In this document: positions 15,265-21,483 of the stretch, piece by piece | How positions within the stretch are numbered: the first letter of the stretch is position 1 | Layout: each line of letters opens with the position of its first letter | Source of the DNA: Deltaproteobacteria bacterium | Lineage (GTDB): Bacteria; Desulfobacterota; Deferrisomatia; Deferrisomatales; JACRMM01 | DNA length: 53,659 nt | NCBI GenBank assembly: GCA_037446775.1 | Contig: JBBIIA010000011.1 | Coordinates: forward strand, 1 to 53,659 | Direction: 5' to 3' | Notes under the pieces: model-generated | What the model was told of the DNA's origin: nothing | Database searches by the model: none | The model's input: the letters and a program-made list of their open reading frames with translations, nothing else | Made by a program: the position numbers and the translations under genes

Positions 15265-16607
15265 GGCGCCCCCCCGCCCAAGAGGTACCCCAGGGCCGCG
15301 GCGGCGGCCGCCGAGCCCGCGGTCACGGCGTCGGGGATATCGAGGGGGCCGGCGCAGGCGCCGGCCAAAAAGACCCCGGGGCGCGGCGACCGGGCGGGGT
15401 CCCGGGGCTCGGCCAGGGCCAGGAAGCAGTCGCCGGCCAGGGGGAGCCCGAGGACGGCAGCGAGCTCGGCCGCGTCGGCCTGGGGCCTAAGCCCGGCGGC
15501 CAAAACCACCAGGTCGGCCGCCAGTTCCTGGGCCTGGCCCAGGAGGGTGTCTTCGAAGCGCACGGCCAGCGCGTCGTCTTGGCGGTACACCTCGGAGGGG
15601 TTGCCCCGCCGCAGGACCACCCCAACGCGCTGGGCCCGCTCGAGAAACTCCTCGTAGCCTTTGCCGAAGGCCCGCAGGTCCATGTACAGGATCGTCACCT
15701 CGACCCCCGGGAGCTTCTCCACGGCGAGGATGGCCTGCTTCACGCTTACCATGCAGCAGACCCGGGAGCAGTAGGCCGCGCCGGTGGTGCGGTCGCGGGA
15801 CCCCACGCACTGGAGAAAGACCACTCGCCGGGGCTCCCGCTCGCAGCCGGGCACCGCGAGCGTGCCGCCGGTGGGGCCCGAGGCCGAGCAGAGCCGCTCG
15901 AACTGGAGGTTGGTGATCACCTCGGAGTAACGGCCGAAGCCGAGCTCGGGTCGGCCGGTGTCGGGGTCGGCCGGGTCGTAGGGCCGGTAGCCCGTGGCGA
16001 CCACTACGGCCCCCACCCGGACCTGCTCGACCCGCTCCCCCTCGTCCAGCCGGATCGCCCCCGAGGGGCACGCGGTGACGCACTTGGGCCCGTCGCCGCA
16101 CTTACCCCTCTTGCGGTAGAGGCAGCTCGCCGGGTCCACGGCGTAGGACGACGGCACCGCCTGGGGGAAGGGCACCCCCACCGCGCTGCCCCGCCCGAGG
16201 CCCTGGTCGAAGGCCCGGGGCACCCGGCCCTTGAGCCGGCACGCCGCGGCGCACGCCCCGCACGCCACGCACCGCTCGGGGTCGACGAAGCGCGGCCGCA
16301 CCCGGAGCCGGGCGCGAAAGCCCCCGCCCGCCAGCTCCAGGGCCTCGACCGCGGCCCGGGTGAGGAGCCGGATCTTCGGGTGGCTCCCCGCCTCGGCGGT
16401 GCGGGGGGTGAGGGTGCAGGAGGAGCAGTCCAGGGTGGGAAAGGTCTTGTCGAGCTGAGCCATGCGCCCGCCAATGGAGTCGCCCTGTTCGACCAGGACG
16501 ACGTCCACCCCGGCCTCCGCCAGGTCCAGGGCCGCCTGGATCCCCGCAATGCCAGCTCCCACCACGAGGGCGGACGGGGGTCTCTTTGACCGGATAACGG
16601 GATGCAC
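15261..16607 (-). CDS. hdrA: HdrA-like flavoprotein, unit 1 (FAD domain with inserted ferredoxin)
   Basis: VVGAGIAGIQAALDLA, GGRMAQLDKTFPTLDC, CVACGAC, QCVGSRD..CSRVCCMVSVKQA, DLRAFGKGYEEF. Start uncertain; nearest in-frame GTG (16607) lies inside the repeat element. Confidence 0.88.
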   Translation of the reverse strand: MHPVIRSKRPPSALVVGAGIAGIQAALDLAEAGVDVVLVEQGDSIGGRMAQLDKTFPTLDCSSCTLTPRTAEAGSHPKIRLLTRAAVEALELAGGGFRARLRVRPRFVDPERCVACGACAAACRLKGRVPRAFDQGLGRGSAVGVPFPQAVPSSYAVDPASCLYRKRGKCGDGPKCVTACPSGAIRLDEGERVEQVRVGAVVVATGYRPYDPADPDTGRPELGFGRYSEVITNLQFERLCSASGPTGGTLAVPGCEREPRRVVFLQCVGSRDRTTGAAYCSRVCCMVSVKQAILAVEKLPGVEVTILYMDLRAFGKGYEEFLERAQRVGVVLRRGNPSEVYRQDDALAVRFEDTLLGQAQELAADLVVLAAGLRPQADAAELAAVLGLPLAGDCFLALAEPRDPARSPRPGVFLAGACAGPLDIPDAVTAGSAAAAAALGYLLGGGAP

Positions 16608-17074
16608 GGGATGGGGGTCAGGCTGGGGGGAGCTGGGCGAGGTCGCGCAGCTTGCGGCGGACCTCGACCCGCTCCTCACCGAAGTTGAGGAGGAGCCCCA
16701 GGGGCTTCCCGGTGGCGACCAGGTAGTTGACCAGCTGGGCTTCGTGGATCGGAGATATTCGCTTCACCGTCTTGAGCTCCACCACGATGTCGTCCTCCAC
16801 CAGCAGGTCCACCACGAACTCCCCCACCAGCTCGCCGTCGTAGCGGACGGCGATGGGGCGCTGAGCCTCGGCCCGGACCCCGGCCTTCCGGAGCTCGATC
16901 AGGAGACACTTCTCGTACACGGACTCGAGGAAGCCGTGGCCCATGCGGTTATAGACCCGGTAGGCACAGCCGATGACCTTCTCGGTGATCGCCTCGAACT
17001 GCACGGCCACCTCCTTCTGCTCCAATGAGCCCCATCCCGTTCATCCGCCTCCGTCGATCCCGTTATCCGGTCAA
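16586..17074. mobile_element. Inverted-repeat-bounded cassette carrying a GxxExxY gene
   Basis: Perfect 18-bp IR TTGACCGGATAACGGGAT (16586-16603) / ATCCCGTTATCCGGTCAA (17057-17074), plus internal ACGGGAT/ATCCCGT sub-repeats. Confidence 0.7.
16618..17004 (-). CDS. GxxExxY protein (PD-(D/E)XK nuclease superfamily)
   Basis: IGCAYRVYNRMGHGFLESVYEKCL, DLLVEDDIVVELK, HEAQLVNYL, GLLLNFG; SD AAGGAGG 5 nt before GTG 17004. Confidence 0.93.
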   Translation of the reverse strand: MQFEAITEKVIGCAYRVYNRMGHGFLESVYEKCLLIELRKAGVRAEAQRPIAVRYDGELVGEFVVDLLVEDDIVVELKTVKRISPIHEAQLVNYLVATGKPLGLLLNFGEERVEVRRKLRDLAQLPPA

Positions 17075-18045
17075 GTCCCCCCCGTCCGGGCGGCTTTGAC
17101 GGCCTTGGTGAGGGCGGGGACGATCTTGAACAGGTCTCCGACGATGCCGTAGTGGGCGACGCGGAAGATGGGGGCCTTGGGGTCTTTGTTGACCGCGACG
17201 ACGAGGCTCGCTCCCCTCATGGCGGTGACGTGCTGGAAAGCGCCGGAGATACCAAGCGCCAGGTAGACCTTGGGCTTGACCGTCTTCCCCGAGATGCCCA
17301 CCTGGCGCTCCTTGGGGAGCCAGCCCGAATCGACCACCGGCCGGGAGCAGCTGACCGTGGCGCCCAGGGCTTCGGCCAGGGCTTGGGCCACGTCCAGGTT
17401 CTCCCCATCGCCGAGGCCGCGGCCGACGCTGACCAGGACGTCGGCCTGGGCGATGTCCACCTCGCCGGCAGCCTCCTGCATCCACTCCAGGAACCGCTTC
17501 CCCAGGTCGGGCAGGTCGGCCGCCACCCGCTCGGGCACCGGGATCGGGGCACCGGCCGGGGCCGACTCGCAGGAGCCCGGCCGTAGGGTGGCGATGACCG
17601 TGGGCGTGGCGGCGAGGCGCACCCGGGCCTGGAGCTTGCCCCCGAAGACCGAGCGCCGGGCACCGAGCGCGCCGTCGGCCCAGGTGAGTCCAATGGCGTC
17701 GGTGACCACCGGCGCCCCCAGGGCCGCGGCCAGGGCCGGCGCCCAGTCCATGCCGGCCGCCGACTGGGCGCCCAGGATCACCCGGGGTCCCCGCTCGGCC
17801 GCCAGGCGCTCCAGGGCGGCGGCCACCGCCGCGCCGTTGAACCCCGCGAGCTCCGGGTGCTCCACCGCCAAGACGGCGTCGGCGCCCGGCGGCAGGGCCC
17901 GGCACAGGGCCTCGGCCTGGCCAGGACCAGCCAGCACCACCGCCGTCACCGGCCCGGCCCCCAGGGCCCGGGCGGCGCCGACCACCTCGGCAGTCACCTC
18001 GCGCAGCGCACCGCTTCGGTGCTCGGTTACGGCCCAGACGCTCAC
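17071..18045 (-). CDS. etfA: Electron transfer flavoprotein alpha subunit
   Basis: DIAQADVLVSVGRG, SRPVVDSGW, QVGISGKTVKP, GISGAFQH, NKDPKAPIF; GTG 18045 overlaps the etfB stop. Confidence 0.95.
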   Translation of the reverse strand: MSVWAVTEHRSGALREVTAEVVGAARALGAGPVTAVVLAGPGQAEALCRALPPGADAVLAVEHPELAGFNGAAVAAALERLAAERGPRVILGAQSAAGMDWAPALAAALGAPVVTDAIGLTWADGALGARRSVFGGKLQARVRLAATPTVIATLRPGSCESAPAGAPIPVPERVAADLPDLGKRFLEWMQEAAGEVDIAQADVLVSVGRGLGDGENLDVAQALAEALGATVSCSRPVVDSGWLPKERQVGISGKTVKPKVYLALGISGAFQHVTAMRGASLVVAVNKDPKAPIFRVAHYGIVGDLFKIVPALTKAVKAARTGGT

Positions 18046-18818
18046 AGGACACCTCCCTTCTCCCGCAAGACCCCCACGACCCGGGCCGCCACCTCGTCGG
18101 GGGAGCCCTCGAACCGCTCGGCCTCCCGGCCGGGGGGCGGCGGTTCCAGGCCCTCCAGGGTCAGGAGGCCGCCGAGCTTTCCGGTGCTCCCGGGGCCCAG
18201 CCCCGTGACCTCGATCGGCTTGGAGCGGGCCTTGCGGATGCCCAGGACCGACACGTACCGGGGGGCGTTGAGGCCGGTCTGCACCGTCACCAGGGCCGGC
18301 AGCCGGAGCTCCACCACCTCGGTCCAGCCCCCCTCCAGCTCCCGGTGGCACCGGGCCCGCCCGTCCGCCACCTCCAGGCGGTTCACCAGGGTCGCCGCGG
18401 GTACCCCCAGCAGGGTCGCCAGGGTCGGCCCGACGATGCCGTACCCGTCGTCGGAAGCGAGCGCCCCGCACAGGTACAGGTCGAACCGCTCGCCCCCCAG
18501 GGCGGCGGCCAGGACCGCGGCAGCCCCCCCGGGGCCCGGGTCGGCCAGGGCGGGGTCCCACACCCGCACCGCCCGGTCGGCCCCCACCGCCAGGCACCGC
18601 CGCAGGCTCTCCTCGGCCTCCTCGGGTCCCAGCAGGAATGCCGTGAGGCTACCCCCGCTGGCTTCCTTGAGGCGCACCGCCTCCTCGAGGGCAAACCGGT
18701 CCCACTCGTTCATCTGGTACGGCAGCCCCGACGCCTTGAGCGACCGGCCATCCGCCGCCACCTGCAAATCGGCCTCGGCGGTGTCGGGCACATGCTTCAC
18801 AAAAACCGCAATGTTCAT
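18042..18818 (-). CDS. etfB: Electron transfer flavoprotein beta subunit
   Basis: VKHVPD, MNEWDRFALEEAVRLKE, GADRA, RELEGG, NAPRY. Confidence 0.95.
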   Translation of the reverse strand: MNIAVFVKHVPDTAEADLQVAADGRSLKASGLPYQMNEWDRFALEEAVRLKEASGGSLTAFLLGPEEAEESLRRCLAVGADRAVRVWDPALADPGPGGAAAVLAAALGGERFDLYLCGALASDDGYGIVGPTLATLLGVPAATLVNRLEVADGRARCHRELEGGWTEVVELRLPALVTVQTGLNAPRYVSVLGIRKARSKPIEVTGLGPGSTGKLGGLLTLEGLEPPPPGREAERFEGSPDEVAARVVGVLREKGGVL

Positions 18819-18834
18819 ATCGCCTCCTTGGGAA

Positions 18835-18995
18835 GGGGTTTTTTGACAGGATAACAGGATAAAATCGGATAGATCTCTTTTGTGGCCCTATGCGATTCCA
18901 AGAGAACGCGGCTCGTTCTGGCACAACAAACGAAAAGCCTTGTTTTATCCCGATCTTATCCTGCTCTTATCCTGTTATCCTGTCAAAAAAACCCC
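18835..18995. repeat. Non-coding inverted-repeat element related to the GxxExxY cassette ends
   Basis: TTGACAGGATAACAGGATAA (18843-18862) / TTATCCTGTTATCCTGTCAA (18967-18986), extended by GGGGTTTT / AAAAACCCC; AT-rich core. Confidence 0.8.
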
Positions 18996-18996
18996 G

Positions 18997-20142
18997 TCAA
19001 GCCAAAGCCCGAGCTACCAACTCCGCCAAGTCGATTACTTCGAGTTTCTCTTCCAGGCCCGTGGTCTTGCGGGCGTCTTCGAGGGTGAGGAGGCAAAAGG
19101 GGCAGGCGGTCACCACCGCGTCGACGCCGAGGTCCGCCGCGTCCCGGACCCGGCGCTGGGCGTTGCGCTCGCCCTCCCCCAGGCCCTCGAGCCACATGCG
19201 GCCGCCGCCGCCTTCGCAGCAGAGGCTCCGCTCCCGGCACCGGTCGAACTCCACCAGCTCCACCCCCGGCACCGCCCGGAGCACCGCCCGGGGTTCCTCG
19301 TACACCCCCGCCTGCTTCCCCAGGTAGCAGGGGTCGTGGTAGGCGACCCGCAGCGGCACCGGACGCTCCAGGGGGAGCCGCCCCTCGGCCAGGAGCCCGG
19401 CCAGGGCTTGGGCGTAGTGGAGGACAGGCGTGTCGAGACCGTAGTCGTCCCGGAAGGTGGCCGCGCAGTGGGGCGAGGTGGCCACGATCTCCCGGAACCC
19501 CAGCTCCCGGAAGGTCTCCCGGTTGGTCTCCCGGAGCTCCTCGAAGAGCCCCAGCTCCCCGAGGCGCAGCACCTCGCTGCCGCAGCAGGTCTCGTCGTTG
19601 CCGAGGGTGGTGTAGTCGTAGCCGGCGGCCGCGAAGAGCTGCGCCAGGGCCCGGGCCATGGCCTGGCACCGGGGATCGTAAGCGGCGGCGCACTCCACGA
19701 ACCACAAGCGCTCGGACTCGTGGCCCTCGGCCAGGGACCGGACCGGGACGCCCTCCTCGGCCCAGGCCGAGCGCTTCTGGCGGGACCGGCCCCAGGGGTT
19801 CCCGTGCTTCAAGCTCGACTCCAGGGCCGCCATGGCGGTCTCCGGGATGCGGCCCCCCTCGACCTTGAGGGTGCGGATCGCCCGGACCACCTCCACCGGC
19901 TTGAGCTCGCGGGGGCAGCGGTCGGCGCAGGTGCGGCACGCGGTGCAGTCCCACACCTCGTCCCGGTCCAGGAGCTCCTCCCCGTCCTCGCGCACCAGGG
20001 ACTCGTACAGCAGCCGCCGGGAGTTCAGGGGCGACCGCAGGCTCATCGGGCACCCCCCCGTGCACCGCCCACACTGCAGGCACGCAGCCAGCTCGAACCG
20101 CTCGGCCAGGGGAACGCCCTCGATGTCACTCAGCTTCGCCAC
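18997..20142 (-). CDS. HdrD/BamD-like Fe-S oxidoreductase (2x[4Fe-4S], two CCG domains)
   Basis: CLQCGRCTGGCP, CTACRTCADRCP, GNPWG, ETCCG, YHDPCYLG, LCCEGGGG, TACPFC; start GTG 20142 with SD GAGG. Confidence 0.88.
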   Translation of the reverse strand: MAKLSDIEGVPLAERFELAACLQCGRCTGGCPMSLRSPLNSRRLLYESLVREDGEELLDRDEVWDCTACRTCADRCPRELKPVEVVRAIRTLKVEGGRIPETAMAALESSLKHGNPWGRSRQKRSAWAEEGVPVRSLAEGHESERLWFVECAAAYDPRCQAMARALAQLFAAAGYDYTTLGNDETCCGSEVLRLGELGLFEELRETNRETFRELGFREIVATSPHCAATFRDDYGLDTPVLHYAQALAGLLAEGRLPLERPVPLRVAYHDPCYLGKQAGVYEEPRAVLRAVPGVELVEFDRCRERSLCCEGGGGRMWLEGLGEGERNAQRRVRDAADLGVDAVVTACPFCLLTLEDARKTTGLEEKLEVIDLAELVARALA

Positions 20143-20182
20143 TCGGGGTCCTCTTTGACAAGTCGACGGGACAGGGGACGAC

Positions 20183-20325
20183 GGGGGTTTCTTGACAGGA
20201 TAACAGGATAAGATCTGATGGGGTTTGTTTGGGTTCCATCTATTGATGGAGTTGCCACCCAGCGATCCCAAGAATTATCCTGTATTTATCCTGCTTTTCA
20301 TCCTGTTATCCTGTCCAAAACCCCC
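20183..20325. repeat. Second non-coding inverted-repeat element of the same family
   Basis: TTGACAGGATAACAGGATAA (20192-20211) and ATCCTGTTATCCTGTC (20300-20315); four ATCCTG units on the right arm. Confidence 0.8.
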
Positions 20326-20331
20326 CGGAAC

Positions 20332-21483
20332 TCAGACCTTCCCAAGAAGAGATCTAGCGACGATCTGCTTCTCCACTTCCTTGGTGCCTTCGTAGATCTC
20401 GACGATCTTGGCGTCTCGGTAGAAGCGTTCGACGTCGTTTTCGGCCAGGTAGCCGTAGCCACCGTGGAGCTGCAGCGCCTCGTCGGCGACCCGTACGCCG
20501 GTTTCGCCCGCCAGCCACTTGGCCATGGCGATCAGGCCGTGGTCCGTGATGCCGCTATCCACCAGGGCCGCGGCGCGGTACACCAGCCACCGGGCGGCCT
20601 CGACCCGGGTCGCCATCTCGGCGATCTTGAACTGGACCCCCTGGAGCGCCGCCAGGGGGCGGCCGAACTGCTCCCTTGCCTTCACGTGGCGCACCGCCTT
20701 GTCCAGGGCCCCCTGGCCCACCCCCACCCCCTGGGCCGCCACGTGGAGCCGGGTGCGATTGAAGAACTCCATGAACTGGGCAAACCCCTGGCCCCGTCGG
20801 CCGAGCAGGTTCGCGGCCGGCACCCGCACGTCCCGAAGGACCACCTCGGCGGTGTCCGAGGCCCGGATGCCGAGCTTGCCCTTGAGCTTGGTGGCCTGGT
20901 AGCCGGGCCGGTCGGTCTCGACCATCAGGCACGAGTGGCGGGAGTGGCGCGAGGGGGCGTGGGGCTCGGTGAGGCAGAAGACCACCAGGTAGTCGGCCAC
21001 CGTGCCGTTGGTGATGAAGACCTTGGTGCCGTTGAGCACCCACTCGTCGCCATCGAGCACCGCGGTGGTGGCCACGGCGGCGATGTCGCTGCCCGCGTCG
21101 GGCTCGGTGATGGCGGCGCCCATGATGGCGTCGCCGGTGGTGAGCGGCGGCAGGTACCGCTGCTTCTGCTCCTCGGTGCCGTAGAGGAGCAGGAGGTCGG
21201 CGCCGAAGGTCACCGACCCCAGGGCCTGACCCAGGCCCGGGTCGGCCCGCCAGAACTCCTCCACCGCGAGGCAGAAGTCCAGGTAGCCGAGGCCCGCGCC
21301 GCCGTACGCCTCGGGGAAGAAGAGCCCGGCGAAGCCGAGCTCGGCGGCCATCTTGTACAGCTCCCGGGGGCACTCCTCCCGGGCGTCGGCCTCCCGGGCC
21401 CGCTGGGGGAACTCCCCCTGGGCGAACTCCCGGGCGGCCTTTTGGATGTCGCGCTGCTCGGCGGTGAGGGCAAACTGGCTCAT
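20332..21483 (-). CDS. Acyl-CoA dehydrogenase
   Basis: ITEPDAGSD, LNGTKVFITNG, KLGIRASDT, REQFGRP, LQLHGGYGY, YRDAKIVEIYEGT. Confidence 0.95.
   Translation of the reverse strand: MSQFALTAEQRDIQKAAREFAQGEFPQRAREADAREECPRELYKMAAELGFAGLFFPEAYGGAGLGYLDFCLAVEEFWRADPGLGQALGSVTFGADLLLLYGTEEQKQRYLPPLTTGDAIMGAAITEPDAGSDIAAVATTAVLDGDEWVLNGTKVFITNGTVADYLVVFCLTEPHAPSRHSRHSCLMVETDRPGYQATKLKGKLGIRASDTAEVVLRDVRVPAANLLGRRGQGFAQFMEFFNRTRLHVAAQGVGVGQGALDKAVRHVKAREQFGRPLAALQGVQFKIAEMATRVEAARWLVYRAAALVDSGITDHGLIAMAKWLAGETGVRVADEALQLHGGYGYLAENDVERFYRDAKIVEIYEGTKEVEKQIVARSLLGKV

Follow-up and report, generated by a model that had tools for sequence, protein, structure and literature searches.

A GxxExxY nuclease gene and its inverted arms as a candidate minimal mobile element

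Why does a small nuclease gene, enclosed by inverted repeats, lie inside an operon of etf and hdr genes? The question is raised by a stretch of 53,659 nt (contig JBBIIA010000011.1 of the Deltaproteobacteria bacterium assembly GCA_037446775.1; "the window" in what follows), in which a gene of the GxxExxY family separates the gene for EtfA from the first of two HdrA-like genes. The initial annotation, made from the letters alone, had suggested that gene and repeats form a mobile or self-propagating system analogous to RAYT/REPIN (REP-associated tyrosine transposases and doublets of REP, the repetitive extragenic palindromes), with a PD-(D/E)XK enzyme in the place of the transposase. The reading we favour, at a probability of roughly 0.58, is that positions 16571-17088 represent a compact mobile element, some 0.5 kb long, that became fixed long ago and whose nuclease would read its own arms and move gene-less copies.

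The inverted repeats that the initial annotation had described are real. The arms (16586-16609 / 17051-17074) are 24 nt long and 92% complementary, and their core is a perfect 18-nt inverted repeat (TTGACCGGATAACGGGAT, 16586-16603 / 17057-17074). An inner pair of 21 nt (16600-16620 / 17026-17046) is 90% complementary, and an outer pair of 10 nt (CGGACGGGGG / CCCCCGTCCG, 16571-16580 / 17079-17088) is again perfect. They are also far above chance: allowing up to three mismatches, the 18-mer is found six times in the window against 0.01 expected, a number reached in none of 100 shuffles. The four matches beyond the gene's own arms form two more convergent pairs, which occupy the next two intergenic gaps of the operon. 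No second open reading frame lies between the arms in the window's open reading frame list. A reading of the arm as a DnaA box was discarded by eye.

The enclosed gene does encode a GxxExxY protein, a PD-(D/E)XK enzyme and not a RAYT, as matches to TIGR04256 (GxxExxY; E 4.9e-43, 146.2 bits against a cut-off of 35) and PF13366 (PDDEXK_3; E 2.7e-42, 144.2 bits against 22) confirm. Within the E-value limits used, Pfam and NCBIfam gave no other family for this protein, and neither an HUH/Y1 (IS200-like) transposase nor any known transposase family was matched. The likelier start is the GTG at 17004, which is preceded by AAGGAGG and would yield a protein of 128 aa. The catalytic site is intact and conserved. 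Nine residues (G21, G23, E26, Y29, D65, E75, K77, N106 and F107) are invariant in 26 homologues and Q89 and Y93 are kept in at least 90% of them, so that the motif residues G23, E26 and Y29 are all present together with the catalytic set E26, D65, E75 and K77. We take the resulting E...D...ExK...QxxxY arrangement to be the site of RecB/Cas4-type nucleases. The predicted structure (mean confidence, pLDDT, 92.4) has Cas4 SSO0001, Hjc and lambda exonuclease as its closest solved folds by template-modelling (TM) score, at 0.43-0.57; ranked by Z the neighbours are R.SwaI (8.2), Cas4 (7.9), 3ijm (7.8) and Hjc (6.8), values which at the R.SwaI/Cas4/Hjc level mean a common fold and no more. A sequence search of solved structures returned nothing meaningful (best E 0.05), PHROGs held no family for the protein, and PADLOC reported no defence family beyond a weak match to a Cas4 profile (E 0.004, 15 bits).

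If the arms belong to the gene, they should be found wherever it is found, and this is largely the case. Among 41 genomes (40 relatives and the window's own), 16 have the family, and flanking inverted repeats exceed those of 20 shuffles at 21 of the 24 GxxExxY loci with enough flank. In these relatives each arm contains two or three units of 8-10 nt in tandem, of a type that varies by clade (CACAGAG, CGCCAAG, CGCAAAG, CGCGGAG, CGCAGAT and CACGAAT). Protein and repeat vary together, as the initial annotation had proposed to check: unit type tracks protein clade, with a correlation between protein identity and unit distance of r = -0.26 that was reached by 19 of 5000 permutations, the units being read by hand and syntenic orthologues reduced to one representative. 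Counts of CGCMAAG doublets were discarded as noisy; they resemble codon strings.

The same holds outside the relatives. We took the 80 closest homologues from a collection of species genomes, picked by protein alone; they are 59-72% identical to the window protein and carry at least 15 phylum labels, including the archaeal Methanosarcinales and Methanoperedens. Flanking inverted repeats exceed shuffles in 66 of the 79 with usable flanks, 61 of these 66 having at least two GGAT units, and of 87 loci searched for a strict arm pattern, 75 have it upstream, 72 downstream and 64 in both places. The architecture of the arm, a T-run followed by GACAGGAT, A/T-AACAGGAT and a third unit, is kept across phyla. 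The TTGACA at the start of the arm, a candidate promoter, is present in archaeal copies as well.

The strongest evidence that gene and arms form a mobile unit comes from near-identical elements in unrelated flanks. Two loci of one metagenome-assembled genome are alike over just 502 nt (86%), a Nitrospinota and a Brocadiaceae copy (L065 and L067) share 97% identity over 525 nt, and a Bacteroidales and an archaeal copy share 91.5% over 706 nt; none of the three pairs has related flanks, and pairwise similarity between copies ends just beyond the arms. Binning error may mislabel the host of a sequence, but it cannot make flanks differ. We also note that elements 90-97% identical (L083, L109 and L110; L065 and L067) occur in records labelled as different phyla or domains, reflecting either recent transfer or binning error.

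In the window's own genome (3.86 Mb in 281 contigs, 71.7% G+C) the arms belong to a dispersed family. The core GGATAACNGGAT is found 78 times (66 with A, 11 with G and one with T) at 41 loci, mostly short hairpin elements, 15 of them at contig ends. There are 19 adjacent convergent pairs of the core, 18 of which span 61-259 nt, while the gene-bearing pair spans 477 nt. What the copies have in common amounts to about 30 nt per arm, namely (A)CGGGG, a T-run, GACAGGATAACAGGAT and a third GGAT unit; between the arms, most of the short elements differ from one another. The short gene-less elements of the window fold as long RNA hairpins (z scores in Table 1). Contigs from X1, and a variant about 96% alike from X2, span the insert, and no empty form or circle junction could be read from them; the contig joints at the arms in this comparison derive from other repeat copies.

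The same genome has one further GxxExxY gene and no other family member (C22:36312-36650). Around it lies another repeat, whose 10-nt units (CGCCGATGNA) make up three small hairpin elements, and all seven matches of this repeat lie within 840 nt of the locus (C22:36154-36993) and none elsewhere in the assembly. Each of the two paralogues thus has its own repeat. The C22 gene sits just downstream of that for a DUF3780 protein. A mundane explanation of the window locus would be that an ordinary hypothetical gene ended up by chance with a copy of a host repeat or terminator on each side, and the abundance of the repeat, at 41 loci, lends this some plausibility. We nevertheless consider it very improbable: the arrangement recurs at the C22 paralogue with a different repeat, at nearly all testable loci of the relatives and at most of the close homologues. 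Other intergenic hairpins or arrays of 9-nt units (CACAGAGGA, CGCCAAGGA seven times over, GGAGGCTAG) were seen in the host genome at C150:4470-4620, C183:2330-2380, C214:410-545 and C53:2330-2560; the C214 hairpin is a chimera of one GGAT-type and one CACAGAG-type arm.

Does the number of repeats follow the presence of the gene, as the initial annotation supposed? It does in part. The sample for this question was 401 genomes of the phylum, searched for the motif ACAGGAT-N(1,2)-ACAGGAT; genomes with eight or more matches were called repeat-rich, and the gene was called at an E-value of 1e-25 or better. The window protein has a match in 13 of 20 repeat-rich genomes and in 54 of the 381 others (odds ratio 11, p = 8e-7, uncorrected for kinship). 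A family-profile search covered five of the seven repeat-rich genomes that lack such a match (G093 and G180 were left out): four have GxxExxY genes of other unit types, G074 is the only one of the five with a GGAT-type copy, a truncated one, and in G052 this search found no GxxExxY gene. Among the 41 genomes of the relatives sample, the window's own included, CACAGAG doublets occur in just six genomes (102, 16, 6, 5, 2 and 1 matches), all of which carry GxxExxY genes, and in none of the 25 without the family. A Methanoperedens genome of 2.5 Mb (G045) has exactly one GxxExxY gene, flanked by arms, and 87 motif matches in compact hairpins. Four other gene-carrying genomes outside the phylum have just 2-14 matches, indicating that expansion of the repeat is occasional and not obligatory. 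In G045 we counted about 40 compact GGAT hairpins (L149-L159), several of which share an asymmetric flank of 30-40 nt, so that the repeated unit exceeds the hairpin.

The junction also has a history that can be followed in relatives. Five genomes of the host's family f1 (G000, G001, G002, G005 and G006) carry the gene at the same etfA-hdrA junction with arms of the same family, and the junction is empty in G004, also of f1, and in six genomes of two neighbouring families. The empty sites that the initial annotation proposed to look for therefore exist, and stable synteny in all relatives is not what we see. The neighbouring hdrD-etfB junction behaves in parallel: all five gene-bearing f1 genomes have a GGAT element there, and the junction of G004 is empty, the stop and start codons overlapping as ATGA. 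So does the dispersed repeat. The 12-mer GGATAACRGGAT is present in the carriers (77 copies in G000, 31 in G002, 22 in G005, 12 in G001 and 4 in G006), is absent from G004, from G003 (which has another GxxExxY gene elsewhere) and from all seven f2/f4 genomes, and, apart from G007 with its 17 copies, reaches at most six in the remaining genomes of the relatives sample. In G001 every one of the 12 copies is of the G variant, which is also that of the arms of its GxxExxY gene. A relaxed pattern, GGATRNNCRGGAT, was dropped as too noisy, giving 11 matches in G004 against 14 in G003, which lacks the 12-mer; one G004 match that was inspected appears to be in coding sequence.

The insert does not share the genealogy of its flanks. 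The flank proteins give the tree (G000,(G005,(G002,(G001,G004,G006)))) with starred support, in which G001, G004 and G006 group at 99/98, and they reject a grouping of G006 with G005 (approximately unbiased test, p-AU 0.0003). The insert groups exactly these two (100/98), and G001 with G002 (92/86), and rejects G001 with G006 (p-AU 0.003); the groups were chosen after viewing a quick tree, which makes these p values generous. The conflict implies that the insert was exchanged, lost or regained at the same site and not simply inherited. The gene is nonetheless kept: it is syntenic across three genera, and the ratio of nonsynonymous to synonymous divergence (dN/dS) lies at 0.08-0.18 when it is compared with its syntenic orthologues. 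Synonymous sites are saturated at this distance (dS of 0.9 or more), and the arm units are still retained. The protein is under selection, and the conservation of the arms reflects more than recency.

Further observations concern these two junctions. In neighbouring families, other tandem-unit hairpins (ACTAGA-type and CACGGAG-type) were seen at the hdrD-etfB junction, at L005 and L010 (G010, G020) and at L014 (G012); the junction looks like one at which elements land repeatedly. No GxxExxY gene turned up in G012 or G020; the three of G010 are elsewhere in its genome. At the empty site of G018 (L013) the HdrA-like N-terminus MNRSPDPV-LVVG resembles the arm-encoded ..SPDPVHPVILS.. of G005 and G006 (L004, L007); from this likeness, the native site may have resembled an arm unit, a hint of target choice.

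The operon itself lies on the minus strand and encodes an acyl-CoA dehydrogenase, an HdrD-like CCG protein, EtfB, EtfA and two HdrA-like flavoproteins; features of the locus are listed in Table 1. The etfA-hdrA junction was correctly identified by the initial annotation, the EtfA neighbour having ETF and ETF_alpha domains and the HdrA-like flavoprotein beside the GxxExxY gene having Fer4 domains. Both neighbours reach into the arms. The TGA stop codon of EtfA (minus strand, 17071-17073) lies within the 5'-side arm, and the HdrA-like protein probably starts at the GTG at 16605-16607 (minus strand) in the 3'-side arm, in which case its first codons (HPVIRS) are encoded by that arm. The same is seen at all five occupied junctions of the family, with the EtfA stop in the upstream arm and 6-10 N-terminal codons of the HdrA-like protein read from the downstream arm, and HdrA-like N-termini are shorter at empty junctions than at occupied ones. 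In G005 and G006 the HdrA-like ATG overlaps the end of the GxxExxY gene.

Table 1. Features of the GxxExxY locus and of the related elements in the same operon (window positions)
Feature	Position	Strand	Remark
GxxExxY gene (minimal PD-(D/E)XK nuclease)	16618-17025	minus	longest open reading frame, 135 aa, from TTG at 17025
Arm 5' of GxxExxY gene	17026-17088		GGAT units (core 17057-17074) and outer G-run
Arm 3' of GxxExxY gene	16571-16620		core 16586-16603
Gene-less hairpin element, GGAT family	18843-18986		between HdrD-like gene and etfB; RNA fold z = -7.2
Gene-less hairpin element, GGAT family	20192-20317		between acyl-CoA dehydrogenase gene and HdrD-like gene; RNA fold z = -6.6

Such intimacy with the operon could suggest that the arms act at the level of RNA, as stems in the transcript that serve RNase III-type processing, insulate or stabilise cistrons or occlude a start codon, with the protein kept for a host function, perhaps the cutting of stems, and the hairpins serving as REP-like regulators of operons. 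The three elements of the window all lie in one co-directional operon, and among the 19 repeat loci of the host genome that could be classified, roughly, by third-position G+C, the neighbouring genes share a strand at 11, diverge at 5 and converge at 3. In the fold predicted for the 531-nt RNA with the gene (z = -4.1), the closing stem is formed by the arms. The stop and start codons in the arms, the purifying selection on a gene syntenic in three genera, and the other hairpins at the same junction in other lineages fit as well. Such a role would, however, leave unexplained the near-identical elements in unrelated flanks across phyla, the clean absence from G004 and the 8-bp direct repeats of genome G039 described below, and both the invariant D...ExK/QxxxY site and the fold neighbours R.SwaI, Cas4 and Hjc are those of DNA nucleases. 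Nor does an Rfam scan of window positions 16000-21000 give any match up to an E-value of 1. We consider this explanation unlikely as an account of the element.

Some copies have transposon-like traits. Genome G039 has four GxxExxY genes and is the one with 102 CACAGAG doublets. It also contains a gene-less element of 275 bp (L141-L146), which has terminal repeats of its own and whose interior is conserved. Six copies were aligned; 8-bp direct repeats flank all four that were readable, and one copy is inverted and one has a disrupted end. The CACAGAG units of this element are subterminal, about 30 nt inside the terminal repeats. Among gene-bearing copies, L109 has terminal repeats (CATATTTCGCAC...GTGCGAAATATG) between perfect 7-bp direct repeats, and its relative L083 has an imperfect direct repeat. 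Insertion at a staggered cut is suggested by these cases, not established.

How might such an element work? The model we favour has a single gene encoding a minimal PD-(D/E)XK nuclease of about 120-128 residues, and ends formed by inverted arms of two or three tandem 8-10-nt units each, here a T-run and GACNGGATAACNGGATGNACNGGAT. The nuclease would recognise the arm units, with several protomers along each arm, and make the DNA breaks that enable the element to move, while the host would have to supply joining and gap repair. The predicted site is a defined repeat of 25-30 bp. The same activity could act in trans on gene-less hairpin derivatives with the same arms. Spread would then take two forms: homing-like copying into the same site of related genomes, and occasional insertion at new intergenic sites, seeding a population like that of REPINs or of miniature inverted-repeat transposable elements (MITEs). 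Binding or cutting of the arms by the GxxExxY protein, DNA and not RNA as its substrate, and the route of integration are all inferred parts of this model.

Several points weigh against this model. We know of no strand-transfer activity for a 120-residue hydrolase, so movement would need host functions. No target-site duplication was seen at the 16 paired elements of the host genome, where the longest word in common has a mean length of 4.8 nt, equal to that of mismatched pairs. Terminal repeats with an 8-bp duplication were found in one of 68 gene-bearing loci against 0-1 in controls, and scans for shorter duplications gave 5 of 68 against 0-3 at 7 bp and 9 against 2-4 at 6 bp. The link between gene and repeat is imperfect. 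No GGAT-type gene was found in G275 (68 motif matches), G218 (40), G327 (11) or G052 (8), and G007 has 17 copies of the 12-mer with no gene found, in an assembly that is 86% complete and in which the junction is unassembled. Hairpins of other unit types occur without a matching gene in the assembly of the host, and G012 carries its tandem-unit hairpin with no GxxExxY gene found in the genome. The dispersed copies of the host are mostly the A variant, while the gene's own arms are the G variant. The window copy is old and built into the operon, its arms supplying a stop and a start codon. Finally, many loci were taken from binned metagenome assemblies, and kinship among the genomes means that they are not independent samples. 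The likeness to a RAYT/REPIN system proposed in the initial annotation thus stands for the organisation, in that arms are dispersed, gene and arms travel together and empty sites exist. Given the exceptions to the gene-repeat link, the missing target duplications in the host genome and the entrenched state of the copy, it is supported only in part.

Part of this list could also be read to mean that the hairpins are spread or maintained by host replication, by repair or by an unrecognised enzyme, and that GxxExxY is a selfish gene of the homing-endonuclease kind riding in their loops. Repeat-rich genomes without the cognate gene, hairpins of other units without a gene in the host genome and in G012, and chimeric hairpins with two unit types all agree with this, and a conflict between insert and flank trees together with one empty allele is the expectation for a homing gene. 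Against it, the arms accompany the gene across all those phylum labels and into archaea, and unit type tracks protein clade. Moreover, the transferred unit stops just outside the arms, which leaves GxxExxY as the sole shared protein, with no second enzyme common to all hosts. We regard this explanation as improbable, to about the same degree as a role in RNA. Both fail to explain why arms travel with the gene across phyla, and both are possible for the entrenched copy in the window.

A bolder claim would be that the whole TIGR04256/PF13366 family is a new class of minimal autonomous elements of about 0.5-0.7 kb, in which a nuclease of about 120 residues reads tandem 8-10-bp arm units, and which cross bacterial and archaeal phyla, home within relatives and seed REPIN-like hairpins that join operon structure. 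We offer this tentatively, at somewhat less than even odds. If it is true, a large family of small proteins found in many prokaryotic phyla gains a function, and systems in which a low-copy gene maintains palindromic repeats gain a second, unrelated type of enzyme. It would also explain intergenic hairpins of tandem 9-nt units that break assemblies and supply the stop and start codons of neighbouring genes. The function of the family is given as 'Unknown' in the Pfam superfamily survey, and a mention of GxxExxY in the literature concerns a neighbour of a reverse transcriptase gene and not repeats. A literature search, with subscription journals and database family notes outside its reach, found no paper linking the GxxExxY/PDDEXK_3 family with repeats.

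The closest comparison in organisation is with RAYT/REPIN systems, as characterised in the work of Bertels & Rainey (REP-associated tyrosine transposases with REP doublets). The likeness lies in a low-copy gene that sits between palindromic repeats of its own, which are dispersed in the genome as tens of gene-less hairpin copies in extragenic space, in a separate repeat family for each paralogue, and in long persistence and synteny within a lineage, with repeats lost, though not without exception, where the gene is lost. The differences lie in the enzyme, a PD-(D/E)XK hydrolase instead of an HUH/Y1 transposase; in the arms, which are tandem 8-10-nt units instead of a single REP hairpin; and in inheritance, REPIN-RAYT systems being described as mostly vertically inherited, whereas gene and arms of GxxExxY pass between phyla and domains. 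Because the defining HUH/Y1 enzyme is absent, the element is not a member of this group.

Insertion sequences (IS) and MITEs share with it terminal inverted repeats, short gene-less derivatives and copies at different sites of one genome, and the G039 derivative has a conserved interior and 8-bp direct repeats. Unlike an IS, the element has no DDE, HUH or serine/tyrosine recombinase, and a nuclease of about 120 aa is its sole open reading frame; most copies show no target duplication or an unclear one, and the interiors of the host's short elements are not conserved. Small ORFs enclosed by a long inverted-repeat stem in a transcript are also known from the intervening sequences of 23S rRNA, where the protein is a four-helix bundle and the stem is in rRNA. 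The window locus lies instead between protein-coding genes, and no rRNA context was found at any of the 20 of the 80 related loci that were scanned with Rfam at the gathering threshold, where the sole match was an unrelated DUF3800-X RNA. This RNA (RF02984, 43 bits) is at L068:473-542 of a Methanosarcinales record, about 2 kb from the GxxExxY element.

In fold and in its E...D...ExK...QxxxY site the protein resembles Cas4/RecB-type and Hjc-type nucleases and TnsA of Tn7, the last of which is a precedent for a PD-(D/E)XK nuclease that cuts transposon ends. The similarity is weak in sequence as in structure (the Cas4 E-value of 0.004, TM scores of at most 0.57 and Z of 8.2 or less), the element encodes no partner transposase, and its neighbours are Etf, Hdr and acyl-CoA dehydrogenase genes and not the CRISPR-cas genes of Cas4. 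With homing endonuclease genes it shares a small nuclease gene wedged between conserved genes, occupied and empty alleles in relatives and a genealogy in conflict with that of the flanks. Homing genes, however, are not known to carry cognate inverted arms or to seed dispersed gene-less copies. By its anatomy, then, the element appears to be RAYT/REPIN-like in organisation and homing-gene-like at the etfA-hdrA junction, and a member of neither group.

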